DNA of 64,000 nt from Escherichia coli (GTDB taxonomy: Bacteria > Pseudomonadota > Gammaproteobacteria > Enterobacterales > Enterobacteriaceae). Of this stretch, positions 43,263 through 64,000 are shown one piece after another. The stretch lies in NCBI RefSeq assembly GCF_009931435.1, contig NZ_CP043414.1; one strand, given 5' to 3'. The notes under the pieces are model-generated. The model had not been told where the DNA came from. It saw only the letters and a program-made list of their open reading frames with translations, and searched no databases. The first letter of the stretch is position 1. Every line of letters starts with the position of its first letter. Made by a program: the position numbers and the translations under genes.

Positions 43263-44426
43263 ATGTTTGTAGAAGCATTGAAACGCCAGAACCCGGCACT
43301 GATTTCCGCCGCACTAAGATTGTGGCAACAGGGCAAGATCGCCCCGGACAGTTGGGTAATCGACGTCGATCAGGTACTGGAAAACGGTAAGCGGCTGATT
43401 GAGACTGCACGGCTTTACGGTATTGAACTGTATCTGATGACCAAACAGTTCGGTCGTAATCCGTGGCTGGCAGAAAAACTGCTGGCGCTGGGTTACAGCG
43501 GCATTGTGGCGGTGGATTACAAAGAGGCACGAATCATGCGCCGCGCAGGTTTACCGGTGGCGCATCAGGGGCATCTGGTGCAAATCCCTTGTCATCAGGT
43601 GTATGACGCTGTTGAACAGGGCACCGACGTCATCACCGTGTTTACACTCGACAAAGCGCGGGAAGTTTCTGCGGCAGCGGTGACGGCCGGGCGGGTCCAG
43701 CCTGTGCTGCTCAAAGTTTATAGCGACGATGATTTTCTTTATCCGGGGCAGGAGAGCGGTTTTGCACAGCATTCGCTGCATGAGGTGGTTGCTGAAATCC
43801 AGAAACTACCGGGGTTACATTTAGCCGGATTAACCCATTTCCCTTGCCTGCTATGGGATGAGGCTGCCGGGAAAGTTTTGCCAACACCGAACCTCCAGAC
43901 GCTGGTCAATGCTCGTAACCAACTTCTGAAGTCTGGAGTTGTACTTGAGCAATTAAACGCGCCTTCAGCGACCAGCTGCACTTCGCTGCCATTACTGGCG
44001 GAATACGGTGTGACTCATGCCGAACCCGGCCATGCGCTGACGGGGACGATTCCGGCAAACCAGCAGGGCGACCAGCCTGAACGTATCGCCATGCTTTGGT
44101 TAAGTGAAATTTCCCATCACTTCCGTGGCGACAGTTATTGCTATGGCGGTGGCTATTACCGTCGTGGGCATGCGCATAACGCACTGGTATTTACGCCAGA
44201 AAATCAAAGCATTACTGAAACATATCTCAAAGCCGTAGATGACAGCAGTATCGACTACACCCTGCCGCTGGCAGGCGAGCATTCGGTAAGCAGTGCTGTG
44301 GTGCTCTGCTTTCGCACGCAGATTTTTGTCAGCCGTAGCGATGTGGTGCTGGTGTCCGGTATTCACCGTGGCGAACCGGAAATCGTTGGTCGTTATGACA
44401 GTCTTGGAAGCTCTCTGGAGGCGTAA
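43263..44426 (+). CDS. yhfX: alanine racemase-fold PLP enzyme YhfX
   Basis: 387-aa ORF recognised as YhfX. Confidence 0.85.
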
Positions 44427-45652
44427 TGGCGCGATTTGTGGTGTTAGTGATTGATAGCTTTGGCGTAGGGGCAATGAAAGATGTCACGTTGGTGCGTCCG
44501 CAGGATGCCGGGGCGAATACCTGTGGTCACATCCTGAGCCAGTTGCCGCATTTACAGCTACCAACGCTGGAGAAAATGGGGCTAATCAACGCATTAGGTT
44601 ATGCGCCTGGCGATATGCAGCCGTCAGACTCCGCAACCTGGGGCGTTGCAGAGTTGCAACATGAAGGTGGCGACACCTTTATGGGGCATCAGGAAATTTT
44701 AGGCACGCGCCCGTTACCGCCGCTGCGGATGCCCTTTCGCGATGTGATTGACCGTGTTGAGCAGGCATTAGTCACCGCTGGCTGGCGGGTTGAGCGCCGT
44801 GGCGAAGAGTTGCAATTTCTGTGGGTTAATCAGTCGGTTGCCATTGGCGATAACCTCGAGGCGGATTTAGGCCAGGTCTATAACATCACCGCCAATCTCT
44901 CTGCGATCTCTTTTGACGACGCAATCAAAATTGGTCGTATCGTGCGTGAGCAGGTACAGGCCGGTCGGGTCATTACATTTGGCGGCCTGTTAACTGACAG
45001 TCAGCGCATTCTCGATGCCGCAGAAAGCAAAGAAGGGCGCTTTATTGGCATCAATGCGCCGCGTTCTGGCGCTTATGACAACGGTTTCCAGGTCGTACAT
45101 ATGGGCTATGGCGTCGATGAAAAAGTGCAGGTGCCGCACCAACTGCATCAAGTGGGCGTGCCCACGGTGCTGGTGGGTAAGGTGGCAGATATCGTCAGCA
45201 ATCCTTATGGCGTGAGCTGGCAAAACCTGGTGGATAGCCAGCGGATTATGGATATCACCCTCGACGAATTTAACACGCATCCGACGGCGTTTATTTGCAC
45301 CAATATCCAGGAAACCGACCTCGCTGGTCACGCAGAAGACGTCGCACGTTATGCCGAACGTTTGCAGGTCGTTGACCGTAACCTTGTCCGGCTTGTTGAG
45401 GCGATGCAGCCAGATGATTGCCTGGTCGTGATGGCGGATCACGGTAACGATCCGACCATTGGTCACAGCCACCATACCCGTGAAGTAGTGCCAGTGCTGG
45501 TTTATCAGCAAGGGCTGGTCCACACGCAACTCGGTGTGCGCACCACGCTTTCTGATGTGGGGGCTACCGTGTGTGAATTTTTCCGTGCGCCACCGCCACA
45601 AAATGGTCGCTCTTTTCTTTCCTCCCTCCGGTTTGCAGGAGACACCCTATGA
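44426..45652 (+). CDS. yhfW: phosphopentomutase-like (alkaline phosphatase superfamily) YhfW
   Basis: 408-aa ORF recognised as YhfW; overlaps yhfX and php. Confidence 0.85.
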
Positions 45653-46527
45653 GTTTTGATCCGACGGGCTTCACCCTCGCCCATGAGCATCTGCATATTG
45701 ATCTCTCCGGCTTTAAAAACAACGTGGACTGCCGCTTTGATCAGTATGCGTTCATTTGCCAGGAGATGAACGACCTGATGGCACTGGGTGTGCGTAATGT
45801 GATTGAGATGACCAACCGTTACATGGGGCGCAATGCACAATTTATGCTCGATGTAATGCACGAGACGGGGATCAACGTGGTGGCCTGCACCGGTTATTAC
45901 CAGGACGCGTTTTTCCCGCAACATGTGGCGACCCGCAGCGTGCAGGAACTGGCGCAGGAGATGGTCGATGAAATTGAACAGGGTATCGATGGCACGGAGC
46001 TGAAAGCCGGGATCATCGCGGAGATCGGCTCCAGCGAAGGAAAGATTACGCCGCTGGAAGAGAAGGTGTTTATTGCCGCCGCGTTGGCGCATAACCAGAC
46101 CGGATGCCCCATCTCCACGCATACGTCGTTCAGCACGATGGGGCTGGAGCAACTGGCTCTGTTGCAAGCCCACGGAGTTGATCTTTCGCGCGTCACCGTC
46201 GGGCACTGCGATCTGAAAGACAACCTCGACAACATTTTGAAGATGATCGATCTCGGCGCGTATGTACAGTTCGACACCATCGGCAAGAACAGTTACTACC
46301 CGGACGAAAAGCGCATTGCGATGCTTCATGCGCTACGCGACCGTGGGTTGCTTAACCGCGTCATGCTGTCGATGGATATTACGCGGCGCTCTCATTTAAA
46401 AGCCAACGGTGGTTATGGCTATGACTTTTTATTAACCACCTTTATTCCGCAATTGCGCCAGTCAGGATTCAGTCAGGCCGATGTGGATGTGATGTTACGT
46501 GAAAATCCCTCTCAATTTTTCCAATAA
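45649..46527 (+). CDS. php: phosphotriesterase homology protein
   Basis: 292 aa; N-terminal HxH metal-binding motif ([11 protein letters not shown]). Confidence 0.9.
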
Positions 46528-46537
46528 GGACAGACTC

Positions 46538-46891
46538 ATGAAAAAGATTGGCGTTGCAGGCTTACAGCGTGAGCAGATTAAAAAAACCATTGAAGCGACG
46601 GCTCCTGGCTGTTTTGAAGTTTTCATTCATAACGACATGGAAGCGGCGATGAAGGTGAAATCCGGGCAACTGGATTACTACATCGGCGCGTGTAATACCG
46701 GTGCGGGCGCGGCATTGTCGATTGCCATCGCGGTGATTGGGTATAACAAAAGTTGCACTATTGCTAAGCCGGGTATTAAAGCGAAAGACGAGCATATCGC
46801 CAAAATGGTTGCCGAAGGGAAAGTGGCGTTTGGGCTTTCCGTTGAGCACGTCGAACATGCGATTCCGATGCTGATTAACCATCTGAAATAA
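46538..46891 (+). CDS. yhfU: DUF2620 protein YhfU
   Basis: 117 aa from MKKIGVAG with AAGGA RBS; ORF track shows a 13-codon upstream extension. Confidence 0.82.
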   Translation: MKKIGVAGLQREQIKKTIEATAPGCFEVFIHNDMEAAMKVKSGQLDYYIGACNTGAGAALSIAIAVIGYNKSCTIAKPGIKAKDEHIAKMVAEGKVAFGLSVEHVEHAIPMLINHLK

Positions 46892-46902
46892 AAGGCACGA
46901 CT

Positions 46903-48207
46903 ATGGATCTGTATATTCAGATTATCGTGGTGGCGTGCCTGACGGGTATGACATCGCTTCTGGCGCATCGCTCGGCGGCTGTTTTTCATGACGGTATCCG
47001 CCCGATCCTGCCGCAACTGATTGAAGGCTATATGAACCGTCGCGAGGCGGGGAGTATCGCTTTTGGTCTGAGCATTGGTTTTGTGGCCTCGGTGGGGATC
47101 TCTTTTACCCTGAAAACCGGGTTGCTCAACGCATGGTTACTCTTTCTTCCTACCGATATCCTCGGTGTCCTGGCGATAAACAGCCTGATGGCGTTTGGCC
47201 TTGGTGCACTCTGGGGCGTACTGATCCTCACCTGCCTGCTGCCGGTAAACCAGCTGCTGACCGCGCTACCGGTGGATGTATTAGGTAGTCTGGGGGAATT
47301 AAGCTCGCCAGTGGTTTCAGCTTTTGCACTGTTCCCGTTGGTGGCGATTTTCTACCAGTTTGGCTGGAAGCAAAGTCTGATCGCCGCCGTGGTAGTGTTG
47401 ATGACCCGTGTGGTGGTAGTGCGCTATTTCCCGCATCTCAATCCGGAATCCATCGAAATCTTTATTGGCATGGTGATGCTGCTGGGGATCGCGATAACTC
47501 ACGACCTGCGTCATCGTGATGAAAATGACATCGATGCCAGCGGTATGTCGGTGTTTGAAGAACGTACGTCGAGGATTATCAAAAATTTACCCTATATCGC
47601 CATCGTAGGGGCGCTGATTGCCGCCGTTGCCAGCATGAAGATTTTTGCTGGTAGTGAAGTGTCGATCTTCACCCTGGAGAAAGCATATTCCGCAGGTGTA
47701 ACGCCGGAACAATCACAAACGCTGATCAACCAGGCGGCGCTGGCGGAATTTATGCGCGGGCTGGGTTTTGTGCCGTTGATTGCCACCACCGCGTTAGCAA
47801 CAGGTGTGTATGCAGTTGCGGGCTTTACCTTTGTTTATGCGGTGGGCTATCTCTCGCCGAATCCGATGATTGCAGCGGTATTAGGCGCAGTGGTTATTTC
47901 GGCGGAAGTCCTGTTACTTCGTTCGATCGGCAAATGGCTGGGACGCTATCCATCGGTACGTAACGCGTCGGATAACATCCGTAACGCCATGAATATGCTG
48001 ATGGAAGTGGCGTTGCTGGTCGGTTCGATTTTCGCAGCAATTAAAATGGCGGGCTATACCGGATTCTCCATCGCGGTTGCCATTTACTTCCTCAACGAAT
48101 CCCTGGGCCGTCCGGTACAGAAAATGGCGGCACCGGTCGTGGCAGTAATGATCACCGGTATTCTGCTGAATGTTCTTTACTGGCTTGGCCTGTTCGTTCC
48201 GGCTTAA
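46903..48207 (+). CDS. yhfT: inner membrane transporter-like protein YhfT
   Basis: 434-aa polytopic membrane protein. Confidence 0.85.
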   Translation: MDLYIQIIVVACLTGMTSLLAHRSAAVFHDGIRPILPQLIEGYMNRREAGSIAFGLSIGFVASVGISFTLKTGLLNAWLLFLPTDILGVLAINSLMAFGLGALWGVLILTCLLPVNQLLTALPVDVLGSLGELSSPVVSAFALFPLVAIFYQFGWKQSLIAAVVVLMTRVVVVRYFPHLNPESIEIFIGMVMLLGIAITHDLRHRDENDIDASGMSVFEERTSRIIKNLPYIAIVGALIAAVASMKIFAGSEVSIFTLEKAYSAGVTPEQSQTLINQAALAEFMRGLGFVPLIATTALATGVYAVAGFTFVYAVGYLSPNPMIAAVLGAVVISAEVLLLRSIGKWLGRYPSVRNASDNIRNAMNMLMEVALLVGSIFAAIKMAGYTGFSIAVAIYFLNESLGRPVQKMAAPVVAVMITGILLNVLYWLGLFVPA

Positions 48208-48218
48208 GGAAGGCACCT

Positions 48219-49304
48219 ATGAAGACGTTTCCTCTGCAAAGCCTGACGCTTATTGAGGCGCAGCAAAAGCAGTTTGCGCTGGTGGATAGCATTTGCCGTC
48301 ACTTTCCCGGCGCGGAGTTTCTTACCCGCGGGGATTTAGGCTTAACGCCAGGGCTGAATCAACCGCGCATTACCCAGCGTGTGGAACAGGTGCTGGCTGA
48401 CGCGTTTCATGCGCCAGCGGCGGCGCTGGTACAGGGCGCGGGTACTGGAGCGATTCGTGCGGCGTTGGCGGCTTTGCTCAAACCGGGGCAGCGTCTTCTG
48501 GTGCATGACGCGCCGGTTTACCCGACGACTCAGGTCATTATTGAGCAGATGGGGCTGACGCTTATTACTGCTGATTTCAACGACCTGTCGGCGCTTAAAC
48601 AGGCCATTGAAGAGCAACAACCTGATGCCGCGCTGGTGCAGCATACGCGCCAACAGCCGCAGGACAGCTATGTGCTGGCAGATGTGCTGGCAACATTGCG
48701 TTCGGCTGGCGTTCCTGCGTTAACCGATGACAATTATGCGGTGATGAAGGTGGCGCGCATTGGCTGCGAATGCGGCGCGAATGTTTCGACATTCTCCTGT
48801 TTCAAGCTGTTTGGACCAGAGGGTGTTGGCGCAGTGGTAGGTGATGCCGATGTTATTAACCGGATCCGCGCCACGCTCTATTCCGGCGGCAGTCAGATCC
48901 AGGGCGCACAGGCGCTGGAAGTATTGCGTGGTCTGGTGTTTGCGCCAGTGATGCACGCGGTGCAGGCGGGGGTATCTGAACGGTTGCTGGCTTTACTTAA
49001 CGGTGGCGCAGTGGCGGAAGTGAAAAGCGCCGTTATTGCCAATGCGCAGTCGAAGGTGTTGATTGTGGAGTTTCATCAACCGATTGCCGCCAGAGTGCTT
49101 GAAGAGGCGCAAAAGCGCGGTGCCTTGCCTTACCCGGTGGGTGCAGAGTCGAAATATGAAATCCCGCCGCTCTTCTATCGACTTTCAGGAACGTTTCGTC
49201 AGGCGAATCCACAACTCGAACATTGCGCGATTCGCATTAACCCGAATCGCAGCGGTGAAGAGACGGTGCTGCGGATTTTGCGTGAGAGTATTGCCAGCGT
49301 TTAA
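48219..49304 (+). CDS. yhfS: PLP-dependent aminotransferase-like protein YhfS
   Basis: 361-aa ORF recognised as YhfS; last gene of the cluster. Confidence 0.85.
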   Translation: MKTFPLQSLTLIEAQQKQFALVDSICRHFPGAEFLTRGDLGLTPGLNQPRITQRVEQVLADAFHAPAAALVQGAGTGAIRAALAALLKPGQRLLVHDAPVYPTTQVIIEQMGLTLITADFNDLSALKQAIEEQQPDAALVQHTRQQPQDSYVLADVLATLRSAGVPALTDDNYAVMKVARIGCECGANVSTFSCFKLFGPEGVGAVVGDADVINRIRATLYSGGSQIQGAQALEVLRGLVFAPVMHAVQAGVSERLLALLNGGAVAEVKSAVIANAQSKVLIVEFHQPIAARVLEEAQKRGALPYPVGAESKYEIPPLFYRLSGTFRQANPQLEHCAIRINPNRSGEETVLRILRESIASV

Positions 49305-49343
49305 TTCTGGGACCGATGTTTTCGCAGAGTATGGAGAAAAATA

Positions 49344-49367
49344 CGCCCTCGGAAAATTCAGAGGGCG
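49344..49367. terminator. bidirectional terminator between yhfS and yhfL
   Basis: cgccctc ggaaaattca gagggcg between two convergent stop codons. Confidence 0.6.
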
Positions 49368-49408
49368 TTAGCTCATTAAATCGGTGTTAGCCGATTTCTG
49401 TCAGAGAC

Positions 49409-49576
49409 TTACTGTGCAGTAGGACCGCAACCGCCAATGATTTTAGAAATAGAAATTGCCGGGTGCAGCAGGTAGTCGTAAGAGCAGTTCTTATCACGGT
49501 TTTCAATATGACCAGTACATGCAGTTAACGTAGCCAGTACCGCACCAACCAGTGCAACTTTAATAAATTTGTTCAT
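49409..49576 (-). CDS. yhfL: small lipoprotein YhfL
   Basis: 55-aa ORF (below ORF-track cutoff) translated by hand: MNKFIKVALVGAVLATLTACTGHIENRDKNCSYDYLLHPAISISKIIGGCGPTAQ; lipobox LTAC. Confidence 0.85.
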   Translation of the reverse strand: MNKFIKVALVGAVLATLTACTGHIENRDKNCSYDYLLHPAISISKIIGGCGPTAQ

Positions 49577-49822
49577 TTACATTCCCTATGTATTATATAT
49601 TAATTAATATTCATTGATTATATGAATATAAGCAGACTGCTCATTAAGAACGATACAGGAATATTTAATTGGCGTCAGTGAGTGAATGACTTAATTTTGT
49701 AAGTCGCTGTAACGGTGAAAATAACCCATTAGCAAATGATATTTACTAAGAGGCTATGATTTATTTACTGAATATATAAAAAGAGTGATAAAGAGGGCCA
49801 GAATTCTCTGGCCCGGGTAAAA

Positions 49823-51196
49823 TTAATGGTTAGAGAACCAGTTCAATTTATCGCGCAGGCCAACGACCCGACCAATAATAATTAATGAGGGGCTGTTCAT
49901 TTGCTGCGCCAGCTCGCCCAGTTGCGTGAGCGTACCGTCAATCACGCGTTGCGTTACCGCCGTTCCGTTTTCGACAATTGCCACCGGCATTTCGCCAGGC
50001 ATACCGTGTTCAATCAGCTTTTGCTGAATAGTCGCGGCCTGATTCAACCCCATATAGAACACCAGCGTCTGTTTTTCTGCCGCCAGGTTTTCCCAGTCCA
50101 GTTCGCCACCGGTTTTTAAGTGTCCGGTAATTAAGCGTACGCTCTGGGCATAATCGCGATGCGTGAGCGGAATGCCCGAATAGGCAGAGCAACCAGACGC
50201 TGCGGTAATACCTGGAACCACCGAGAATGGAATGCCTGCATTGCACAGTGTTTCCAGCTCTTCGCCACCACGGCCAAAAATAAACGGATCGCCGCCTTTC
50301 AGCCGCACCACGCGTTTGCCTTTTTGCGCTTCCCGCAGCAGGATCTGGTTAATCTCTTCCTGCGGTACGCAGTGGTATCCCGCGCGTTTACCGACGAAGA
50401 CACGATCCGCATCGCGCCGTACCAGATTCATAATATCGTCTGAAACCAGACGGTCGTAGACCACCACATCTGCCTGCTGAATTTGTTGCAGACCTTTCAG
50501 CGTCAGCAGACCGGCATCGCCCGGACCTGCGCCAACCAGCACCACTTCACCGCGATGATCGAGCGGTTCATTGATTAACTGTTCGGTCGTTTCGGTAATG
50601 GCTTTCTGATCGTTGTTCGCCAGCGACTGCGCCAGGCGATCATTAACGAACAGTTTTTCCCAGAAACGGCGACGTTCACCCATCGTGGCGAACTGTCGTT
50701 TGACCCGACCGCGTAACTGCCCCGCATATTTTGCTACCTGGCCGAGATGCAGCGGCAGCAGTGATTCAAGTTTTTCGCGCAACAGTCGCGCCAGAACCGG
50801 AGAGGTGCCGCCAGAGGAGACCGCTACCATGAGCGGGGAGCGGTCAATAATCGACGGCATAATAAAGCTGGCGGCTTTCGGCGCATCGACCACGTTACAG
50901 AAGATACGACGAGATTCGGCGGCTTCGCTGACGCGCTGGTTAAGCGCGTCATCATTCGTCGCCGCAATTGCCAGCCAGCAGGTGTCGAGAAGGCTTTCAT
51001 CAAATGGCCCTTCGACGAGGGTTAACATGCCTGCATCTGCCCATGCGGTGAACTGTGGAATAAACGCTAATGCATTCACCGTTAAGCGAGCACCTGCGTC
51101 TAACAGCAACCTTGCTTTGCGTTCCGCGACATCACCACCGCCGACAATCAAACAGTCGCGGTCGCGTAATTGGCAAAATATAGGCAAATGATCCAC
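49823..51196 (-). CDS. cysG: siroheme synthase
   Basis: 457 aa recognised as CysG. Confidence 0.95.
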
Positions 51197-51214
51197 GTAA
51201 AAACCCCTTAATAA

Positions 51215-52021
51215 TTAACCGGCAGCCGTTTCAGTTTGATTAAATTTGTCCGCAACCGGACGATTAGCTTTCGGCGTAGCATACCAATAACCCAATCCCA
51301 TGAATACGGCACCCGATAAAGTATTACCCAGCGTCACCCACAGCAGGTTATGACCAATACCCGCCAGCGTGTAGGCTTCGCTGTGGTTGCCGAACCATGA
51401 GAGCGCGAACAGCGTCATGTTAGCGATGGAGTGCTCGTAACCGGACGCAATAAACGCCAGCAGACACCACCAGATTGCGATAAATTTCGCCGCGCCTTCA
51501 GTACGCAGTGCCATCCAGATTGCCAGACAAACCAGCCAGTTACACAATGCGCCTTTGAAGAACAGTACCATTGCCGGTGCGGTGGTTTTAGCCAGCGCGA
51601 CGGAGTGAACAATACTGGTATCTATTGGTAAAAGGCTACCACCGCCCCAGCTATAAAGCATGGCAACAAAGACGGAACCGACCAGGTTACCCAGCCAGGT
51701 TTGCGGCAGGATTGCCCACATTTGCCCGTGGCTAATGGTGCCCGCTTTCACCCCAAAGGTGAGGAACATGGTGTGTCCGGTGAACAGTTCAGAACCGGCG
51801 ATAATGACCAGCGTTAAAGCGATACCAAAGGTCGCGCCCATCACCAGAGGACGTACGGACGGATCGAGCAAATTACCGAGCGTGAAAATCAGGATGATCC
51901 CCAGCCCCACATACGCGCCCGCCATCGCGGAGCTTACCCAGAAGCCGAGCGGGTTATTTGCCGACAGGCGTGCAATGCGCGCAGCGTTAGCCGCACACTT
52001 ATTAATAGTGTCTGTAAACAT
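51215..52021 (-). CDS. nirC: nitrite transporter NirC (FNT family)
   Basis: 268-aa membrane protein recognised as NirC. Confidence 0.94.
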   Translation of the reverse strand: MFTDTINKCAANAARIARLSANNPLGFWVSSAMAGAYVGLGIILIFTLGNLLDPSVRPLVMGATFGIALTLVIIAGSELFTGHTMFLTFGVKAGTISHGQMWAILPQTWLGNLVGSVFVAMLYSWGGGSLLPIDTSIVHSVALAKTTAPAMVLFFKGALCNWLVCLAIWMALRTEGAAKFIAIWWCLLAFIASGYEHSIANMTLFALSWFGNHSEAYTLAGIGHNLLWVTLGNTLSGAVFMGLGYWYATPKANRPVADKFNQTETAAG

Positions 52022-52147
52022 TTGATTATCCTTTAAAAAATAAAAACAAAAAATAAAACAAAAAGTTTAAAAAATGTCCTGCAATATACTTAAGGTCATT
52101 ACAGGACAATGCAAAAAGGGGAGGCATTGCGCCTCCCGTTAAAACAA

Positions 52148-52474
52148 TTAACCGCGTAGCTGTACCACGCCGTCTTTCACTCGTGCCTCGTAATGCTTGA
52201 CGGAAAACTGTTCATCTTCCATGCATAAACCGTCGCTTAAGCGAAAACGCTGTTTTTTCAGCGGACTGGCGACCCACAGCTCGCCCTGGTGTTCCGCAAT
52301 CAGCCCGCGTGACAGCACGCTGGATTCGAAGAACGGATCGATGTTGCTGATCGCAAACACCTGGTCGCTGTGATACGGGCGGAAAATCGCTACCTGCTCG
52401 TCACCTAACAGCGCGCAGACGCCGGTTTCAGGCAGGATGTCATCAATTTTGCAGATGTCTTTCCACTGGCTCAT
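52148..52474 (-). CDS. nirD: nitrite reductase small subunit
   Basis: 108 aa; start overlaps nirB stop. Confidence 0.94.
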   Translation of the reverse strand: MSQWKDICKIDDILPETGVCALLGDEQVAIFRPYHSDQVFAISNIDPFFESSVLSRGLIAEHQGELWVASPLKKQRFRLSDGLCMEDEQFSVKHYEARVKDGVVQLRG

Positions 52475-55014
52475 GCGTTGTCCTCCACCAGAGTTACCGG
52501 GATACGTTCATACGGCGTTGCCGGACGGTGCTGTTCGCGCTCTGGCACCATCTGCACGTTCGGGTCACGCTTGTCGCTGTTGATGAAGTGTTTGAAGCGA
52601 ATCTGCGCGGACGGTGTATTGACCGTTTCAGTCCACTCACACACTACCGCTTCACGCAGGCGCGCCATCTCTTCTTCCAGATGTGCGTTCAGCCCCAGTT
52701 TGTCGTCAATGATCACCGCTTTCAGGTAATCAATGCCGCCTTCGAGGTTTTCTAACCACGGTGCGGTACGCGTCAGTTTGTCGGCAGTACGGATGTAGAA
52801 CATCATGAAGCGGTCAAGATATTTGATCAGTGTTTCGCGATCGATATCCGCTGCCAGCAGATCCGCATGACGCGGTTTCATGCCGCCGTTACCGCACACA
52901 TACAGGTTCCAGCCTTTTTCAGTGGCGATAATACCCACATCTTTACCTTGCGCTTCTGAACATTCACGGGTACAGCCGGAGACACCGAACTTCATTTTGT
53001 GCGGCGTACGGATGCCTTTGTAGCGGTTTTCCAGTTCCACGCCGAGGCCGACGCTGTCGCCAACGCCGTAGCGGCACCAGGTGCTACCCACGCAGGTTTT
53101 CGCCATACGCAGTGCTTTCGCATAGGCATGACCGGTTTCGAAACCTGCTTCAATCAGCTGACGCCAGATCTCCGGCAGATCGTCTTTCTGTGCGCCAAAC
53201 ATCGCCAGACGCTGGGAGCCGGTGATTTTGGTGTAGAGATTAAATTCACGCGCGATACGACCCACTGCCATCAGCCCTTCTGGGGTGATTTCACCACCTG
53301 GAGAACGCGGGATCACCGAGTAGGTGCCGTCTTTCTGGATGTTCGCGAGGAAGTTGTCGTTAGAATCCTGTAGCGGAGTATGTTCCGGCTTCAGAATGTA
53401 TTCGTTCCAGCAGGAGGCCAGCAGTGAACCGACGGTCGGTTTACAAACCTCACAACCGTAGCCTTTACCGTGTTTCGCCAGCAGTTCTTCGAAGGTTTTA
53501 ATGCCTTCAACGCGGATCAAATGGAACAGTTCCTGACGTGAATAAGCAAAGTGTTCGCACAGGTTATTGTTAACTTCGATACCCTGTTTTGCCAGTTCCG
53601 CGTTCAGTACCTGAGTGACCAGCGGGATACAGCCACCGCAGCCAGTACCCGCTTTGGTTTCGGCTTTCAGCGCCGCAACGGTGTGGCAGCCTTTGTTGAT
53701 GGCAGCAATCAGATCGCCTTTGGTGACGTCGAAGCAGGAGCAGATTTGCGCGCTGTCCGGCAGTTTATCAACACCAATAGACGGCTTGCCGCTACCTGAG
53801 TGCGCCGGCAGAATCAGAGAATCCGGGTTTTCCGGCAGCTCGATTGCGTTCAGCACCAGTTGCAGCAGGTTACCGTAGTCGCTGGTATCACCCACCAGTA
53901 CTGCACCGAGCAGGGTTTTGTTGTCTTCGCTGACAATCAGGCGTTTGTAGATCTCTTTACTTTCGTCGAGGTAAACGTAGCTACGTGCGCCAGGCGTGCG
54001 ACCGTGAGCATCACCAATACCGCCTACGTCTACGCCCAGCAATTTCAGCTTGGCGCTAAGGTCAGCACCTTCAAAGGCGTTTTCGCTACCGAGAATATGG
54101 TCAACGGCGACCTGCGCCATTTTGTAGCCAGGTGCTACCAGACCAAATACACGGTTGTTCCAGCTTGCGCATTCACCGATGGCGTAGATATCTGGATCGG
54201 AAGTCTGGCAGGAATCATTAATGACGATACCCCCACGCGGAGCAACTTCCAGACCACACTGGGTTGCCAGCTTATCGCGCGGACGGATACCGGTAGAGAA
54301 GACGATAAAGTCGACTTCCAGTTCGCTGCCGTCGGCAAAACGCATGGTTTTACGCGCTTCAACACCTTCCTGCACAATCTCAAGGGTGTTTTTGCTGGTG
54401 TGAACGCGCACGCCCATACTTTCGATTTTGCGACGCAGCTGCTCGCCGCCCATCTGATCAAGCTGTTCCGCCATCAGCATAGGGGCAAATTCGATAACGT
54501 GGGTTTCAATGCCTAAGTTTTTCAGCGCGCCAGCGGCTTCCAGACCTAACAGGCCGCCACCAACAACGGCACCGCGTTTGCTGCGACGGGCGCAGGATTC
54601 AATGGCGTTGAGGTCTTCAATGGTGCGATAGACAAAGCAGTCCTGAGTATCAGAACCTTTAATTGGCGGGATCCACGGGTAGGAACCGGTCGCCATGATC
54701 AGCTTGTCATAAAAAACGGTGCGCCCGGCGCTGGAGTGAATCACCTTCTCCTGACGGTTGATGGTGATAGCGCGTTCGCCGACCAGAACTTTAATACCGT
54801 GTTTTTCGTAAAAGCCTTCGCGCACCAGCGACAGCTCTTCGGCGGTGTGGTGAGAGAAGTAAGACGAGAGGTGTACGCGGTCATAAGCGATGCGCGGTTC
54901 TTCACAGAAAACGGTAATATCAAAGTTGGCCGCATCAGATTTATCAAGAAGATCTTCGATAAAGCGATGGCCGACCATACCGTTACCGATAATTGCGAGT
55001 CTGACTTTGCTCAT
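52471..55014 (-). CDS. nirB: NADH-dependent nitrite reductase large subunit
   Basis: 847 aa; N-terminal FAD/NAD fold (IIGNGMVG) and siroheme/Fe-S region. Confidence 0.96.
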   Translation of the reverse strand: MSKVRLAIIGNGMVGHRFIEDLLDKSDAANFDITVFCEEPRIAYDRVHLSSYFSHHTAEELSLVREGFYEKHGIKVLVGERAITINRQEKVIHSSAGRTVFYDKLIMATGSYPWIPPIKGSDTQDCFVYRTIEDLNAIESCARRSKRGAVVGGGLLGLEAAGALKNLGIETHVIEFAPMLMAEQLDQMGGEQLRRKIESMGVRVHTSKNTLEIVQEGVEARKTMRFADGSELEVDFIVFSTGIRPRDKLATQCGLEVAPRGGIVINDSCQTSDPDIYAIGECASWNNRVFGLVAPGYKMAQVAVDHILGSENAFEGADLSAKLKLLGVDVGGIGDAHGRTPGARSYVYLDESKEIYKRLIVSEDNKTLLGAVLVGDTSDYGNLLQLVLNAIELPENPDSLILPAHSGSGKPSIGVDKLPDSAQICSCFDVTKGDLIAAINKGCHTVAALKAETKAGTGCGGCIPLVTQVLNAELAKQGIEVNNNLCEHFAYSRQELFHLIRVEGIKTFEELLAKHGKGYGCEVCKPTVGSLLASCWNEYILKPEHTPLQDSNDNFLANIQKDGTYSVIPRSPGGEITPEGLMAVGRIAREFNLYTKITGSQRLAMFGAQKDDLPEIWRQLIEAGFETGHAYAKALRMAKTCVGSTWCRYGVGDSVGLGVELENRYKGIRTPHKMKFGVSGCTRECSEAQGKDVGIIATEKGWNLYVCGNGGMKPRHADLLAADIDRETLIKYLDRFMMFYIRTADKLTRTAPWLENLEGGIDYLKAVIIDDKLGLNAHLEEEMARLREAVVCEWTETVNTPSAQIRFKHFINSDKRDPNVQMVPEREQHRPATPYERIPVTLVEDNA

Positions 55015-55072
55015 TTTTGCCTCGATTTCTTTTCTATTACCGCCTACCTTAACGATTCAGCAACCCCGCTTA

Positions 55073-55086
55073 TTGATGTAAATCAA
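55073..55086. promoter_or_regulatory. FNR binding site of the nir promoter
   Basis: TTGATgtaaATCAA, perfect FNR consensus half-sites, about 60 bp upstream of the nirB start codon. Confidence 0.8.
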
Positions 55087-55275
55087 ATTCACCTTTATAT
55101 ACTCCTTAAGAGGTATATTGCTGATTTGTATAAATTTTCTTAAGTCACGGAATTGTCTGACATTTCATTCGTGTGCAAAAAATAGACAAAATGAAAGGGT
55201 TTATAGAAATAGACGTACGTAGCGGGGTAAGTGAGGAAAAGGCCGGACGACGATAGCGCCGCCCGGCATGAGCAA

Positions 55276-56457
55276 TTAATGAGAGGTCAGGGTGTTATGC
55301 TGACGGTGACGGCTGACGAAACCTAACAGGAAGCACATTACAAAGACGACAGCGTACAGACCGTTTGCCGTCAGCAGCGCCGCCTTTGGACCGCTATGTT
55401 CAACAATCGGGCCGGTAACGACAAAGGTCAGCATGGTACCGATGGTCCCGCAAGTCAGGACAAAGTTAACCAGTTTTGGTGACGGTACTTTGGTTTGCTG
55501 TGAACCCAGGGTGATGATGGTGGTATAGATCGCGCTGGAGAAGAAGCCCAGGGCGAGAATTGACCACGCCATATGTGCCGGTGTTCCGGTGTTAAAGACG
55601 TACATCAGAATCGCAGCCAGACCGGCCAGTACGGTCAGAATACGTTGCAAATCAAAGAAGCGAAGAATAAAGCTGAACGCCCACATGCCGACCATATAGG
55701 ACATCCAGAAGTTACTCACCAGCGTACCTGCGTCGTTCAGGCTCATGCCCAGGCCTTTGGCATACTCTGGTACCCAGGAGATAAAACCTAACTGACCGAG
55801 GATGTAGCACAGCGCTGCAATTGAGAGAAACAGTACGCCGATGCCCCATTTTTCTTTCGCTACTGGAGCATCCGTTTTTGGCGCATGTTTGCCCAGTGCC
55901 GGAAACTCACAGCCGAAGGTCAGAATAAAAATAGCGACGTAAACCAGCCCGATGCAGGCATAAACCCAGTACCACTCAATGCTGCGCGCCAGTAGAAACG
56001 CGGCGATCATTGGGAAAATCATCCCAGCCATACTGAAGAAGGAGTCGGTAAATAACAGGCGGGAACCGCGCTGACGCCCTTCATACATTTGTGTTATCAG
56101 GAATGTACCAATCGACATAGTAATGCCGCTGACCACCCCGAGAATGAACATCGCCGCCGAGAACAGCGCCAGGCTGTGGCTAAACATCAAACCAGCAACC
56201 GCTAGCACCATCAGGAGAAAGCCAAAACGTAACTGCGTTTTTAACGGGACGATTTCCATCAGCCAGGCATTGAGGAAGATAGAGATTAAAATGCCAGCAT
56301 TGAGGAAGGTGAAGGTGTTACTCATACTGGAAACAGGCAGATTGAAATAATCGGCGATATTTCCCATCACCATCCCGGTGACAATAACCAACGCACCCGT
56401 CAGTGCGTAGGAGAGAAAGCTAATCCATGTGAGCTTGATGCGATTGCTGTTAGTCAT
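55276..56457 (-). CDS. tsgA: MFS transporter TsgA
   Basis: 393-aa membrane protein recognised as TsgA. Confidence 0.9.
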
Positions 56458-56717
56458 GATTGGCCTGCGTTCAAAAATAAAATGGCATAGCGGGATATGC
56501 CGCGAGCGGGCGATTTTAGGTGATTTTGTGATCTGTTTAAATGTTTTATTGCAATCGGTTGCTAAATTGCATTTTAAGGGTGATTTTGATCACGGAATAA
56601 AAAGTGATCGTCAGGTTACATATATTTCAGATACGTAAAATTAGGTAAAGGGATGGCCTTGTTCTTGAAGGCTATTTAGAATCTCTTCACTTGCTTTTTT
56701 TCTGCTCTGTTTGTTAA

Positions 56718-57299
<582 letters not shown>

Positions 57300-57306
57300 T
57301 GATTTC

Positions 57307-57336
57307 TCGCGCGGGCAATCTTGCCCGCGCTTCTGC
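57307..57336 (+). terminator. putative terminator after ppiA
   Basis: cgcgcgggcaa tc ttgcccgcgc hairpin followed by a T-rich tract. Confidence 0.55.
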
Positions 57337-57403
57337 TCTCCCGGCGTAACCCGGATTTGCCGCTTATACTTGTGGCAAATGGACACGTTCAGGGAGGCAT
57401 CAA

Positions 57404-57571
57404 GTGAAGAAACTCACCGATAAGCAAAAGTCCCGTCTCTGGGAGCTTCAGCGTAATCGTAATTTCCAGGCCAGTCGCCGTCTTGAAGGCGTCGAGATGC
57501 CATTAGTCACTCTTACTGCCGCAGAGGCTTTAGTGCGCCTTGAAGAGCTGAGGAGGCACTATGAGCGATAA
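57404..57571 (+). CDS. yhfG: small protein YhfG (Fic partner, antitoxin-like)
   Basis: 55-aa ORF with GTG start after AGGGAGG RBS ([22 protein letters not shown]...); stop overlaps fic start. Confidence 0.8.
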
Positions 57572-58163
57572 ATTCGGCGAAGGGCGCGATCCGTATCTTT
57601 ATCCTGGCCTTGATATCATGCGTAACCGGCTGAACATCCGCCAGCAACAGCGGCTGGAACAGGCCGCTTACGAAATGACGGCGCTGCGTGCTGCGACCAT
57701 TGAGCTTGGTCCGCTGGTGCGCGGTTTACCGCATTTGCGCACTATCCATCGCCAGCTGTATCAGGATATTTTCGACTGGGCGGGGCAACTGCGTGAAGTT
57801 GATATTTATCAGGGCGATACGCCTTTCTGCCACTTTGCTTATATCGAAAAAGAGGGCAATGCCCTGATGCAGGATCTGGAGGAAGAAGGGTATCTGGTTG
57901 GCCTGGAGAAAACGAAGTTCGTCGAGCGGCTGGCACACTACTATTGTGAAATCAACGTCCTGCATCCCTTCCGGGCGGGAAGTGGTCTGGCACAGCGGAT
58001 CTTCTTCGAGCAACTGGCGATTCATGCTGGTTATCAACTGAGCTGGCAGGGTATCGAAAAAGAGGCCTGGAATCAGGCAAATCAGAGTGGGGCAATGGGT
58101 GATCTCACTGCGCTGCAGACGATATTTAGCAAAGTGGTAAGCGAAGCCGGGGAATCTGAGTAA
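57561..58163 (+). CDS. fic: Fic-domain AMP transferase
   Basis: 200 aa; Fic motif [12 protein letters not shown]. Confidence 0.94.
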
Positions 58164-58194
58164 AATAGCGCGGTTCTTTCGTACCGGAGCCGCC

Positions 58195-58758
58195 ATGATC
58201 CTGCTTATTGATAACTACGATTCTTTCACCTGGAACCTCTACCAGTATTTTTGTGAACTGGGGGCCGACGTGTTGGTTAAGCGCAACGATGCGTTAACGC
58301 TGGCGGATATCGACACACTCAAACCGCAGAAAATTGTTATCTCACCTGGACCCTGTACGCCGGACGACGCAGGGATCTCCCTGGACGTTATTCGCCACTA
58401 CGCCGGGAGTTTGCCGATTCTTGGCGTCTGCCTCGGTCATCAGGCAATGGCGCAGGCTTTTGGTGGCAAAGTTGTGCGCGCAGCAAAGGTCATGCACGGC
58501 AAAACCTCGCCGATCACACATAACGGTGAGGGCGTTTTTAAGGGGCTGGCAAATCCACTCACCGTGACACGCTACCATTCGCTGGTGGTGGAGCCTGACT
58601 CATTACCGGAGTGCTTTGAAGTGACGGCCTGGAGCGAAACCCGCGAGATTATGGGGATTCGTCATCGCCAGTGGGATCTGGAAGGTGTGCAGTTCCATCC
58701 AGAAAGTATTCTCAGCGAACAAGGGCATCAACTGCTGGCTAATTTCCTGGAACGCTGA
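58195..58758 (+). CDS. pabA: aminodeoxychorismate synthase glutamine amidotransferase subunit
   Basis: 187 aa; class I GATase (GVCLGHQ). Confidence 0.95.
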
Positions 58759-58828
58759 TTTCTGATTGCCATTCAGTGATTTTTTATGCATATTTTGTGA
58801 TTATAATTTCACATTGAGTTATGCGTAA

Positions 58829-60064
<1,236 letters not shown>

Positions 60065-60098
60065 ATAAGACACGTCAGCGTCGCATCAGGCAAAAGAT

Positions 60099-60128
60099 GT
60101 CGGATGCGGCGTGAACGCTGTATCCGAA
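60099..60128. repeat. REP-like palindrome
   Basis: gtcggatgcggcgtgaacgctgtatccga between argD and yhfK. Confidence 0.55.
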
Positions 60129-60139
60129 GGTAGCCTGTA

Positions 60140-62230
60140 TTACGCCTTCGAATCCCGCAACTTGCGACTCAGCCAAATCCCATGATGTGGTCGCTGACGC
60201 CATGCCATCGACGAAATGGTGTGCATGGTGTTCAGATGACCAATAACCCGCTGTAAATGCTGCTCCAGCGTACCTGCCGCGCCTTCGTGCGGCTGCATCT
60301 CCGGCGCATCCATGATATTGGCATCGCCAGAACTCCCCGGTTCGTCATATTCCAGTCGCTGCTGACAACGCTGAATGGCGATTTCACAAGACTGCAAATA
60401 TTCTTGCGCCAGTTCAGGTGGTAATGCCCGGTGTTCCCGTGCCAGCGTGGTCATGGCATTGATATGCTCAACAATAAACTGACTGTGCGTTACCCACAGT
60501 TTCATATCTGCCAGATAATGGCTGTTGAATGCCGGTTCCTGCATCGCCTGATTCAATGAGTTATACAGAGTGTTATGCGCCTGATTCACCCGCATTCGCT
60601 GCCAGGCCAGTGGCGTTGGTTGCGGATCTTCACTCAGAATCAAACGAATCGCTTCCTGATAGGCTTCTAAAGCGTCATGGGCGTTTTTACGCAATAACCC
60701 GCTCTGCCACTGCGGCCACAGCCAGACTGTTCCGCCGAAAGCAATCAAACAACCAATAATGGTGTCGATAAGACGCGGAAGGATGTACTGCTCACCGTTC
60801 AGCCACAACAGTTGCAGGGTATATACTGCGGTAATGGTAAAACCGACCGTCGCCCAGCCGTAGTTTTTGCGCAATATCAGGTAGCTGGCGAGGGTGGTAA
60901 TCAGCATCAAGGTCAGGGTGTAACCTTCGGGAATTTTAAAGTGCAGCGCCACGCCCGCAATGATTAACCCGACCACGGTTCCCACGGAGCGATTCACAAT
61001 CCTCAGACGGGTTGCGCCATAGCCATTTTGCGTTACCAGCAATACTGTCATCAGGATCCAGTACGACTTCGGCAGATGCAGCGCGGTGCCCATCAGGCTG
61101 GCAACGCTTAACATCACACTGAGTCGTCCAGCATTGCGTAGCGCTGGAGATTTCAGTGACAGATAACTTTTTAGCGCCGGCAGTAACGGCATTCGCCGCT
61201 GTTTATCGGCCAGTAAATCACGGGCATAGAGCGGTTTTTGGGTGCGTAGTACACGAGCGATGCGGCTGAAGTGCCAATAGCAGAATTGCCCAACAGGATT
61301 ATCCGGATGCTGGCGGGCGATTTTTTCCAGTGCGCCAATTTGTTTTTCCATCGTAAAGCGCGTCGGCAGGCGATGGTAAAGAATGTCATCAGCCAGCACG
61401 CGCAGGCGAGTGGCGACAGTTTGCGCATTCCAGCGGATAACTTCTTCTGCATGGCTACGCTCGACCAGCTTTTGCACCTCTTCCGGCTGATGCAAACTGA
61501 CCGAAATATGTTCCTGCAAATCCAGCGCCTCCTGGAAAATACGCAGCATCCGCTTGTAATCGGTATTATTTTGCGCGGAAAGCATATGCATTTGCTGATA
61601 GCACTGGGTAATTAAATCGACCGCTTTTTGCTGGCGCACCAGCAGCGGCGGCAGCGCTTTTTCAGGGTCGGTGTGCTGGGTAAGCAGGCTGTATTTAGCT
61701 TCGCAATAATCTGCCAGTTCACGGTACAGCAGACTTAGTGACTCGCGCAGCGGTTGTTCGCGCCAGATCCAGAACCAAAACCAGTTAAACAATCCGTACC
61801 AGAGAGTGCCCAACGCATAGATGAGCAACGGTTCCCAGACTGGCATGTATCCCGCCAGACTGAGGGTAAAAATGGCGGCGAGCAGCGATGCGGGAAGCAA
61901 TTTTGCGTGCAATGGCCCCAGCTCAGCAGTGACGCCAAGTACCAGCGTTAGTCCAGTCAGCAAAAAGGGCAAGGGAACATCTTTTGCCAGTAACAGCTGT
62001 GTCAGCAAGCTACAGGTGGCAAACAGCGACGCACCAATGATTAAGCGTTTGAAAAAACGTTTATGAGGCGTATCAAGGCCCGCAATATTGCAACAAGCAG
62101 GAACGAGGGAGAAGAGCAGACCGAATCGTAATTCGCCAAGCATTAACCCAACGGCCACGGGCAAACATAGCACTAGCGTTTGTCGTAGTGCATAGTTGAT
62201 ATCGGGGTGATAAATCAGTCTGCGCCACAT
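60140..62230 (-). CDS. yhfK: inner membrane protein YhfK (FUSC-like)
   Basis: Large membrane protein; ATG start at 62230 (MWRRLIYHP); ORF track begins 4 codons upstream at a TTG. Confidence 0.85.
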   Translation of the reverse strand: MWRRLIYHPDINYALRQTLVLCLPVAVGLMLGELRFGLLFSLVPACCNIAGLDTPHKRFFKRLIIGASLFATCSLLTQLLLAKDVPLPFLLTGLTLVLGVTAELGPLHAKLLPASLLAAIFTLSLAGYMPVWEPLLIYALGTLWYGLFNWFWFWIWREQPLRESLSLLYRELADYCEAKYSLLTQHTDPEKALPPLLVRQQKAVDLITQCYQQMHMLSAQNNTDYKRMLRIFQEALDLQEHISVSLHQPEEVQKLVERSHAEEVIRWNAQTVATRLRVLADDILYHRLPTRFTMEKQIGALEKIARQHPDNPVGQFCYWHFSRIARVLRTQKPLYARDLLADKQRRMPLLPALKSYLSLKSPALRNAGRLSVMLSVASLMGTALHLPKSYWILMTVLLVTQNGYGATRLRIVNRSVGTVVGLIIAGVALHFKIPEGYTLTLMLITTLASYLILRKNYGWATVGFTITAVYTLQLLWLNGEQYILPRLIDTIIGCLIAFGGTVWLWPQWQSGLLRKNAHDALEAYQEAIRLILSEDPQPTPLAWQRMRVNQAHNTLYNSLNQAMQEPAFNSHYLADMKLWVTHSQFIVEHINAMTTLAREHRALPPELAQEYLQSCEIAIQRCQQRLEYDEPGSSGDANIMDAPEMQPHEGAAGTLEQHLQRVIGHLNTMHTISSMAWRQRPHHGIWLSRKLRDSKA

Positions 62231-62280
62231 CGGGGGAAACAAAATGGCGCGCTACTCAGTAACGCGCCACTCCGACGGGA

Positions 62281-62913
62281 TTAACGAGTGCCGTAAACGA
62301 CGATGGTTTTACCGTGTGCGGAGATCAGGTTCTGATCTTCCAGCATCTTCAGAATGCGTCCCACGGTTTCACGAGAACAGCCGACAATCTGACCGATTTC
62401 CTGACGGGTAATTTTGATTTGCATACCGTCCGGGTGAGTCATGGCATCCGGTTGTTTTGCCAGGTTCAGCAGAGTCTGTGCAATGCGGCCCGTCACGTCG
62501 AGGAACGCCAGGTTGCCCACTTTCTCTGAAGTGACTTGCAGACGACGCGCCATCTGTGCAGACAGACGCATCAGAATGTCCGGGTTTACCTGAATCAATT
62601 GGCGAAATTTTTTGTACGAAATTTCAGCCACTTCACAGGCGGTTTTCGCACGTACCCATGCGCTACGTTCCTGGCCCTCTTCAAACAGGCCCAGTTCGCC
62701 AATAAAATCACCCTGATTCAGATAGGAGAGGATCATTTCTTTACCCTCTTCGTCTTTGATCAGCACTGCCACAGAGCCTTTAACGATGTAGTACAGCGTT
62801 TCCGCTTTTTCACCCTGGTGAATAAGCGTGCTCTTGGATGGGTACTTATGAATGTGGCAATGAGACAAGAACCATTCGAGAGTCGGGTCTGTTTGCGGTT
62901 TGCCAAGCACCAT
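62281..62913 (-). CDS. crp: cAMP receptor protein
   Basis: 210 aa; cNMP-binding domain and HTH ([20 protein letters not shown]). Confidence 0.97.
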
Positions 62914-63214
62914 GCGCGGTTATCCTCTGTTATAAGCTTTCTCCAGAGCCAGATAACGCCGCTGTCTCTGGATTGCCGAAATATGCTTCCCGCTACCTGG
63001 GAAGGGGCTATCAACTGTACTGCACGGTAATGTGACGTCCTTTGCATACATGCAGTACATCAATGTATTACTGTAGCATCCTGACTGTTTTAGCATAGCT
63101 TTCGCTTTGTGTCTCCTGGTGTCTCGCTTCAGCATGACCCAGGTCGCCTTCCGTTGCGCGATTTGGTTAGTACGCGTACTCTGTCAGGAAAATTGACGCA
63201 GTGGAGTAGCAAAA

Positions 63215-63619
63215 ATGCAAGCGCGAGTGAAGTGGGTCGAAGGGTTAACTTTTCTGGGCGAATCCGCCTCTGGTCACCAGATTTTAATGGACGGCAACTC
63301 AGGCGATAAAGCGCCAAGTCCGATGGAAATGGTGTTGATGGCGGCGGGGGGCTGTAGCGCCATCGATGTGGTTTCTATCCTGCAAAAGGGGCGTCAGGAT
63401 GTGGTCGATTGTGAAGTAAAATTGACCTCTGAACGCCGCGAAGAGGCACCACGCCTGTTTACGCACATTAATCTGCATTTTATCGTCACCGGTCGCGACC
63501 TGAAAGACGCAGCGGTTTCGCGTGCGGTAGATCTCTCTGCCGAGAAATATTGTTCAGTGGCGTTGATGCTGGAAAAAGCGGTGAATATTACTCACTCGTA
63601 TGAAGTGGTTGCCGCGTGA
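63215..63619 (+). CDS. yhfA: OsmC-family protein YhfA
   Basis: 134 aa divergent from crp. Confidence 0.9.
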   Translation: MQARVKWVEGLTFLGESASGHQILMDGNSGDKAPSPMEMVLMAAGGCSAIDVVSILQKGRQDVVDCEVKLTSERREEAPRLFTHINLHFIVTGRDLKDAAVSRAVDLSAEKYCSVALMLEKAVNITHSYEVVAA

Positions 63620-63637
63620 TTTGATGTCAGGAGTACG

Positions 63638-63663
63638 ATGCCGGATAATTGTTTATCCGGCAT
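63638..63663. terminator. bidirectional hairpin between yhfA and prkB
   Basis: atgccggata attgtt tatccggcat. Confidence 0.6.
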
Positions 63664-63673
63664 ATTAGCAGAG

Positions 63674-64000
63674 TTACTCGATTTTCTTTCCTTCCATCAA
63701 TCGTTGCACCAGTGGCAGCATAATTAACTCCATTGCCAGACCCATTTTACCGCCCGGCACCACTAATGTATTGATGTGGGAAATGAATGAGCCCTGCAAC
63801 ATCGCCAGCAGCCAGGGGAAATCGATCCCTTCCAGATTACGAAAATGGATCACCACAAAGCTTTCATCCAGCGACGGGATAGCTTTTGCCGCGAACGGGT
63901 TTGAGGTGTCAACGGTGGGGACGCGCTGGAAGTTAAGATGGGTGCGGGAAAACTGCGGTGTGATGTAGTTGATATAGTCTTCCATTGAGCGCACTACTGA
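63674..64000 (-). CDS. prkB: phosphoribulokinase-like protein, 3' part only (N-terminus beyond window)
   Basis: C-terminal about 108 codons readable; frame continues to window edge. Confidence 0.8.
   Translation of the reverse strand, partial: SVVRSMEDYINYITPQFSRTHLNFQRVPTVDTSNPFAAKAIPSLDESFVVIHFRNLEGIDFPWLLAMLQGSFISHINTLVVPGGKMGLAMELIMLPLVQRLMEGKKIE

Follow-up and report, generated by a model that had tools for sequence, protein, structure and literature searches.

Escherichia coli yhfG-fic, very probably a coupled chromosomal class I FIC module in which YhfG obstructs a diverged, non-AMPylating Fic protein

The question raised by the yhfG-fic locus of Escherichia coli is whether two overlapping genes, one of which encodes a Fic protein and the other a much smaller partner, constitute a toxin-antitoxin-like unit in which the partner restrains an AMP transferase, or whether the resemblance to such a unit goes less deep than the gene arrangement suggests. 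In the window examined here, which is a stretch of 64,000 nucleotides of E. coli DNA, a first-pass annotation had read the pair as probably a regulated, self-contained module rather than two independent genes. The answer that emerges from the sequence, the conservation of the locus and the published structural work is very probably that the pair is the chromosomal class I module ficA(yhfG)-ficT(fic), that the expression of its two genes is coupled, and that YhfG obstructs a Fic protein which has diverged and does not AMPylate. Neither the pair nor the idea that its small member is an inhibitor is new. A prediction that Fic/Doc and YhfG make up a toxin-antitoxin pair dates from 2009 (PMC2701414), Fic was placed in class I in 2012, and the EcFicT/EcFicA complex was solved in 2016 (PMC5033356). 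Current annotations of E. coli genomes name the genes yhfG, fic and pabA, and the newest RefSeq entries describe the first of them as “ficA: FicA/YhfG family antitoxin”.

The first part of the question concerns the gene structure. All features given below lie on the + strand unless stated otherwise. The upstream gene, yhfG (ficA, ecficA), occupies 57404..57571 and encodes 55 amino acids between a GTG start at 57404 and a TAA stop at 57569..57571; the downstream gene, fic (ecficT), occupies 57561..58163 and encodes 200 amino acids between an ATG at 57561 and a TAA at 58161..58163. The two open reading frames are in different frames and share the 11 nt that run from the fic start to the yhfG stop (57561..57571, ATGAGCGATAA), so that the earlier description of a 55-residue, GTG-initiated frame which stops inside the start of fic is confirmed exactly, both in its coordinates and in its sequences. 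A Shine-Dalgarno sequence, GGGAGG, is found at 57392..57397, 6 nt upstream of the GTG of yhfG, and a second, GGAGG, lies at 57552..57556, within the 3' end of yhfG, where it serves fic.

The significance of this junction can be judged from an alignment of the locus in four genera (the window, Salmonella, Kosakonia and Lelliottia), which covers about 900 nt between the stop of ppiA and the start of pabA and in which 58.6% of positions are invariant overall. The longest invariant run in the locus is the 21-nt segment 57552..57572 (GGAGGCACTATGAGCGATAAA), which takes in the Shine-Dalgarno sequence and ATG of fic as well as the stop of yhfG; the sequence CAGGGAGGC at the yhfG Shine-Dalgarno site is likewise invariant, and the Kosakonia, Salmonella and Lelliottia contigs all have the identical 11-nt overlap. 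Since all four genera keep this junction unchanged over a longer stretch than any other in the locus, the overlap is not mere chance. In comparisons with Salmonella, Lelliottia and Kosakonia, yhfG has a dN/dS of 0.04-0.13 and fic one of 0.05-0.10, values which are approximate because dS is saturated. It follows from these low ratios and from the invariant junction that both genes are real, that their protein products are constrained by strong purifying selection, and that the coupling architecture of the pair is itself conserved across genera. The overlap implies translational coupling: with the fic Shine-Dalgarno sequence and ATG both embedded in the end of yhfG, the two proteins would be made in a ratio near 1:1.

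The transcriptional boundaries of the unit are less sharply drawn. Directly 3' of the ppiA stop there is a G+C-rich hairpin (57309..57330) with a 9-bp stem and a dG of -20 kcal/mol (z = -3.2); only one of 200 shuffles folds equally well, and a hairpin can be read from the sequences at the matching place in Salmonella, Kosakonia and Lelliottia. This hairpin is likely to be the terminator of ppiA and the upstream boundary of the yhfG-fic unit. A simple terminator scan did not call it, on account of the weak T-run in its T-poor tail (TTCTGCTCT). Between the hairpin and yhfG, the hexamer TATACT at 57365..57370, 34 nt upstream of the yhfG start, is a candidate for the -10 element of the fic promoter; it occurs only once in 57300..57600, and in the four-genus alignment GCTTATA is invariant. 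A review table, citing Utsumi et al. 1993, gives TATACT as the -10 element of the fic promoter, which is sigma-S dependent and belongs to the stationary phase, and we infer that the copy at 57365..57370 is the probable -10 element of that published promoter. No sigma-70-like promoter was detected ahead of yhfG by a consensus scan, whose site counts did not exceed those in shuffles. Such a result would fit a promoter of the sigma-S type that lacks a -35 element, but it is uninformative when taken alone.

At the downstream end, the spacer between fic and pabA (58164..58194) is 31 nt long and contains no terminator-like site, and pabA (58195..58758) follows in the same direction as fic; more broadly, the consensus scan found no + strand terminator between 57270 and 59715, with counts again not above those in shuffles. 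Tran and Nichols reportedly found in 1991 that pabA is transcribed from two promoters, one upstream of fic and the other within fic. The picture suggested by these signals is one in which yhfG and fic would be co-transcribed from the promoter just upstream of yhfG, and in which transcription from the TATACT promoter would read through into pabA. In the spacer itself, GCGGUUCU pairs with GGAGCCGC in a hairpin (58170..58192) that covers the pabA Shine-Dalgarno sequence, and the GCGG...CCGC arms of this hairpin recur in Salmonella, Kosakonia and Lelliottia. The spacer hairpin is no better than shuffles (z = -0.68), nor is the RNA fold at the yhfG/fic junction (z = -0.66), and no regulatory hairpin is claimed at either place. 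An Rfam scan of 54000..61000 with E<=1 gave no match overlapping yhfG-fic. Its one hit was a sub-threshold match to naRNA4 on the - strand (60058..60129; 36.4 bits, where the gathering score is 59.5, with E=9e-4), which straddles the end of argD, reaches towards yhfK and is most likely a REP-type extragenic repeat.

Whether the pair is also self-contained, as had been proposed, depends on its surroundings and its distribution. The gene order is tsgA (-), ppiA, yhfG, fic, pabA and argD (+), and yhfK (-), and the order ppiA-yhfG-fic-pabA-argD is kept in the Kosakonia, Salmonella and Lelliottia contigs. A 951-nt query across yhfG-fic was matched in 5425 of 5426 complete E. coli genomes, with a median of one place per genome. 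These matches fall at 5428 places, one of them on a plasmid record and a few in genomes with two copies, and a single genome of the 5426 has no match. Homologues of YhfG numbered 187, all of them in Enterobacteriaceae (Escherichia, Shigella, Salmonella, Citrobacter, Enterobacter, Leclercia, Lelliottia, Kosakonia and others), and the homologue search, taken together with PMC5033356, indicates that the YhfG family and the EcFicT-like Fic proteins have equally narrow taxonomic ranges. The mobility or patchy horizontal spread typical of type II toxin-antitoxin modules was not found: yhfG-fic is not mobile, since it is a single-copy core locus with the same flanking genes in Salmonella, Kosakonia and Lelliottia, and vertical transmission of the EcFicTA pair was also concluded by Stanger et al. 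2016 (PMC5033356). The pair is thus a vertically inherited housekeeping locus of the Enterobacteriaceae and not a mobile addiction cassette. In the matter of self-containment, then, the proposal survives in the sense that the two genes form a unit by coupled expression and physical interaction, but not in the sense of an isolated element, since the unit is core and syntenic and adjoins pabA with no terminator between them. Public databases already contain the exact YhfG and Fic proteins of the window, listed as Escherichia coli, and the YhfG sequence is common to E. coli H605 and other Escherichia entries. For the last 20 kb of the window (44000..64000), identity with complete RefSeq E. coli genomes does not exceed 98.7%, so the window probably derives from an Escherichia or Shigella lineage that is missing from the complete E. 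coli genomes searched.

The second part of the question is whether YhfG has the features of an inhibitor. Its membership of the YhfG family is established by full-length profile matches above curated cut-offs, to Pfam PF10832 (E=7.5e-24; 83.8 bits against a cut-off of 22.6; profile positions 1-54 of 54) and to the NCBIfam equivalog PRK10204 (4e-37; 126.1 bits against a cut-off of 77). Fic proteins are held in check by a motif of the form [S/T]xxxE[G/N], which the first-pass annotation had suggested seeking in YhfG or within Fic. There is one match in YhfG, the product of the small upstream gene in the same orientation as fic: the sequence SRRLEG at residues 24-29 (S24..G29), encoded at 57473..57490 and located where the first helix of YhfG ends. 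There are no matches anywhere in the 200-residue Fic. The presence of the inhibitory motif on a separate small protein, with none within Fic, is the arrangement of class I, rather than that of class II or III.

A match to so short a pattern must be separated from what would be expected by chance. In shuffled 55-residue proteins with the composition of YhfG, the pattern arises in 3.3% of cases, so the match taken alone is only suggestive. Within the YhfG family S24 and E28 are each conserved in 120 of 121 sequences and G29 in 116 of 121, and this conservation is supportive rather than decisive, because the 121 sequences are closely knit, with identities of at least 75%. What is decisive is the crystallographic contact of S24 and E28 with R146 of Fic. 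One natural E. coli contig (Logan SRR25548099 contig 30, with yhfG at 2001-2168 of L008) carries YhfG E28G, through a change of GAA to GGA at the codon which in the window lies at 57485..57487; the same substitution was engineered for PDB 5JFZ. This contig has the native tsgA-ppiA-yhfG-fic-pabA context and an intact fic of 200 codons, whose product differs from that of K-12 only by H27R. The variant, seen in two contigs and possibly a sequencing error, suggests that loss of the inhibitory glutamate is tolerated.

The crystal structures of the E. coli K-12 complex EcFicT/EcFicA (PDB 5JFF and 5JFZ; Stanger, Harms, Dehio and Schirmer 2016, PMC5033356) come from the same locus as the window pair and differ from it only in allele. 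Fic matches chain A of both entries with E=3e-132 and differs from the native sequence at four of 200 residues (H27R, A118T, V139A and M187T, relative to native 5JFZ chain A; the crystallised 5JFZ construct also has G at position 2). YhfG matches 5JFF chain B with E=1.4e-29 and 53 of 55 residues identical, the differences being A44V and S51R. Both proteins are therefore about 96-98% identical to the solved chains and retain E28 and R146. Window and K-12 have in common SRRLEG, the degenerate signature described below, G55, the DPY motif, the gene order, the 11-nt overlap and the pocket residues A36, T40, Y67 and F71. The K-12 proteins bind each other 1:1 in a stable complex, whose Tm is 63 C and whose interface measures 1641 A^2 and is largely hydrophobic; SRRLEG protrudes into the active site of Fic, where S24 and E28 bind R146, R25 of YhfG contacts T40 of Fic, and the E28G substitution lowers the Tm by 10 C (PMC5033356). 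By identity to the solved chains, the salt bridge between the antitoxin glutamate and the second signature arginine (R2), which is the mark of a direct complex, is predicted for the window pair as well, the contact itself being taken from PMC5033356.

These observations also bear on the simplest alternative, namely that yhfG and fic are two independent genes which happen to overlap by accident. In compact bacterial operons, genes often overlap by a few nucleotides. YhfG also lacks sequence similarity to the antitoxins of other solved FicTA systems: a phmmer search of the PDB with YhfG, carried to E=10, returned YhfG chains only and found none of VbhA, AntF and BiaA, so that the link between YhfG and the other FicA antitoxins exists only at the level of structure and motif. 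Against an accidental association stand the strict pairing of the genes and their identical junction in four genera, the conserved inhibition motif, the agreement between the range of the YhfG family and that of the EcFicT-like Fic proteins and, above all, the co-crystal structure of the complex, which effectively refutes it. Independence of the two genes is accordingly extremely improbable.

The third part of the question, and the one on which the interpretation turns, is what kind of enzyme Fic is. Fic is a class I FIC-domain protein and the founding member of the Fic family. It has the FIC domain fold, as judged by its match to Pfam PF02661 (E=7.6e-14, above the gathering score), and it matches the NCBIfam equivalog PRK10347 with 8.9e-129. 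It had been described as carrying the AMP-transferase motif, a description which does not hold. The signature, which comprises the 12 residues H135..R146 encoded at 57963..57998, fails a pattern match to HxFx[D/E]GNGRxxR, the sequence definition of an AMP transferase: the histidine, the phenylalanine, both glycines and the last arginine (R2) are kept, but alanine replaces the acidic residue, serine the asparagine and leucine the first arginine (R1). The aligned signatures are HPFREGNGRAQR in Fic-1 (8WT0) and HPFREGNGRTLR in VbhT. The three replaced positions are those that bind ATP and Mg, the acidic residue being the one that binds Mg. The degeneracy is common to the orthologues (Salmonella HPFRLGSGLAQR, Kosakonia HPFRLGNGIAQR, Lelliottia HPFRIGNGIAQR). 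With the catalytic histidine kept and the Mg-binding acid, the asparagine and R1 replaced, this Fic is most likely not an AMP transferase that uses ATP.

One signature position varies within the species. At codon 139 (57975..57977) the window has GCG, for alanine, where K-12 has valine, Salmonella and Kosakonia leucine, and Lelliottia isoleucine; the position is D or E in canonical enzymes, and in the 2016 structure it lines a hydrophobic groove (PMC5033356). Of 5426 complete E. coli genomes, only 12 contain the exact 59-mer around the codon, and A139 is therefore a rare allele. The codon for Gly55 (57723..57725), the site of the classical fic-1 filamentation allele G55R (PMC5033356), is wild type here.

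The biochemistry reported for the K-12 protein agrees with the signature. Neither auto- nor target-adenylylation was detected for EcFicT, even with the inhibition motif mutated (E28G), the structure suggests that ATP is not bound, and a conserved, extended hydrophobic pocket formed by A36, T40, Y67, F71 and V139 points to another substrate; the protein was called “toxin-like”, with no detectable activity, and fic knock-outs are viable (PMC5033356). The mechanism of E. coli Fic was still described as elusive in a 2026 paper (PMC13327609). The idea of a regulated AMPylase is in trouble for this reason, since inactivity of Fic regardless of YhfG is the outcome that the first-pass annotation had itself named as speaking against its proposal. 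Other accounts exist. Two reviews (PMC10886550 and PMC8097203), both citing Harms et al. 2015, describe EcFicT as growth-inhibitory or as AMPylating gyrase and topo IV, and one of them states that its ectopic expression is toxic. These claims of toxicity or AMPylation conflict with the findings of Stanger, Harms et al. 2016, and the primary statement is given more weight here because Harms is a co-author of it (PMC5033356).

The prototype class I FicTA module is VbhT/VbhA of Bartonella schoenbuchensis (PDB 3SHG, 3ZC7 and 3ZCB). Like the window pair, it consists of a Fic protein and a small antitoxin encoded upstream, with an inhibitory [S/T]xxxE[G/N] helix whose glutamate forms a salt bridge with R2; VbhT and EcFicT have the same FIC fold (RMSD 1.36 A over 187 C-alpha; PMC5033356) and a common N-terminal DPY segment. 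VbhT is canonical in its signature (HPFREGNGRTLR), AMPylates GyrB and ParE, is toxic and plasmid-borne, and carries a BID secretion domain, whereas the Fic of the window has a degenerate signature and is chromosomal, and AMPylation was not detected for EcFicT (PMC5033356). As to the antitoxins, the three helices of VbhA have their counterpart in two helices and a loop of YhfG (PMC5033356), and phmmer finds no sequence similarity between them.

The closest solved relative outside Escherichia is Fic-1/AntF of Pseudomonas bijieensis 2P24 (PDB 8WT0; PMC13327609). The window Fic aligns with Fic-1 over residues 1-196 (E=8.4e-49), the antitoxin gene is again immediately upstream, and S24 and E28 of the antitoxin contact R146 with the same numbering, but Fic-1 has the canonical signature HPFREGNGRAQR and AMPylates GyrB at Y111 (PMC13327609). 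A precedent for a FIC scaffold with an activity other than AMPylation is provided by Doc (PMC5033356). The Doc/Phd pair of phage P1 resembles the window pair in its FIC fold, its non-canonical signature and its small neutralising partner encoded upstream; it differs in that Doc is an EF-Tu kinase with a motif of its own and Phd is unrelated to YhfG, and Pfam groups Doc with the window Fic only at the level of the Fic/DOC family.

It can now be asked whether the pair is a canonical FicTA toxin-antitoxin system after all, with Fic as an active enzyme that transfers AMP, is toxic through AMPylation of GyrB and ParE in the manner of VbhT, YeFicT and Fic-1, and is curbed by YhfG. Such a system would have the class I architecture and the inhibition motif that are seen here, the fold and the complex are closely like those of VbhTA and Fic-1-AntF, EcFicT is given in two reviews as toxic or as an AMPylase of gyrase, and the database label for the window protein is “putative adenosine monophosphate-protein transferase”. 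An active AMP transferase is nevertheless hard to reconcile with a signature that has lost D/E, N and R1, with the failure to observe adenylylation even when the inhibitor carries E28G, or with a structure that suggests ATP is not bound (PMC5033356). The viability of fic knock-outs and the syntenic, vertically inherited character of the pair are unlike typical type II modules, and in the natural contig with YhfG E28G, a single observation, the altered antitoxin gene adjoins an intact fic. A canonical toxin is for these reasons unlikely.

A different possibility is that YhfG and Fic are the two subunits of one enzyme, so that the complex itself is active, for example in removing a modification, with a role tied to pabA or to the stationary phase. 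Together, Fic-1 and AntF form a deAMPylase, which removes AMP from GyrB by means of Glu28 of its small subunit (PMC13327609). E28 and S24 of YhfG are near-invariant, both genes are core and strongly constrained, the linkage to pabA is conserved, and coupling that favours a 1:1 ratio, together with a very stable complex, fits an obligate heterodimer. In deAMPylating Fic enzymes (FICD/EfFic), the asparagine, R1 and the acidic residue of the signature bind the AMP phosphate and the metal. Fic has lost all three of these, de-modification is not among the activities reported for EcFicTA, and the natural E28G variant suggests that the glutamate is dispensable in at least some strains. A two-subunit enzyme of this kind is very unlikely. 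Fic may also have a purely structural or regulatory role.

The preferred reading is thus that of a coupled class I module with a diverged Fic, and its mechanism may be set out as follows. Once made in similar amounts, YhfG would wrap around Fic through the large hydrophobic interface, and the end of the helix that carries SRRLEG would enter the active site, where Ser24 and Glu28 would lock R146, the last arginine of the FIC signature; the obstruction would be of the kind seen in VbhA/VbhT and AntF/Fic-1. Fic would be a diverged enzyme, as its conservation and its conserved pocket suggest, and would probably act on a substrate other than ATP in the enlarged hydrophobic pocket. Of the original proposal of a regulated module, the part that stands is that YhfG binds and obstructs Fic, as indicated by the motif, the solved complex and the conserved overlap; the part that does not is the regulation of an AMPylase.

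As a finding, the pair adds nothing new; the point that the locus brings out is that the signature of the founding Fic protein is degenerate and yet strongly conserved. The names “putative AMP-protein transferase” and “toxin” are labels assigned by homology, and Fic fails the sequence definition of the first. It is conceivable, if doubtful, that YhfG and Fic are no toxin and antitoxin but the obligate subunits of one enzyme, whose chemistry would be new and other than AMPylation; it would employ the conserved His135 and R146 of Fic, Glu28 of YhfG and the enlarged hydrophobic pocket, and its role would lie in the stationary phase or in the pabA/folate pathway. If this were true, the rare A139 allele of the window would represent natural variation in the substrate pocket.
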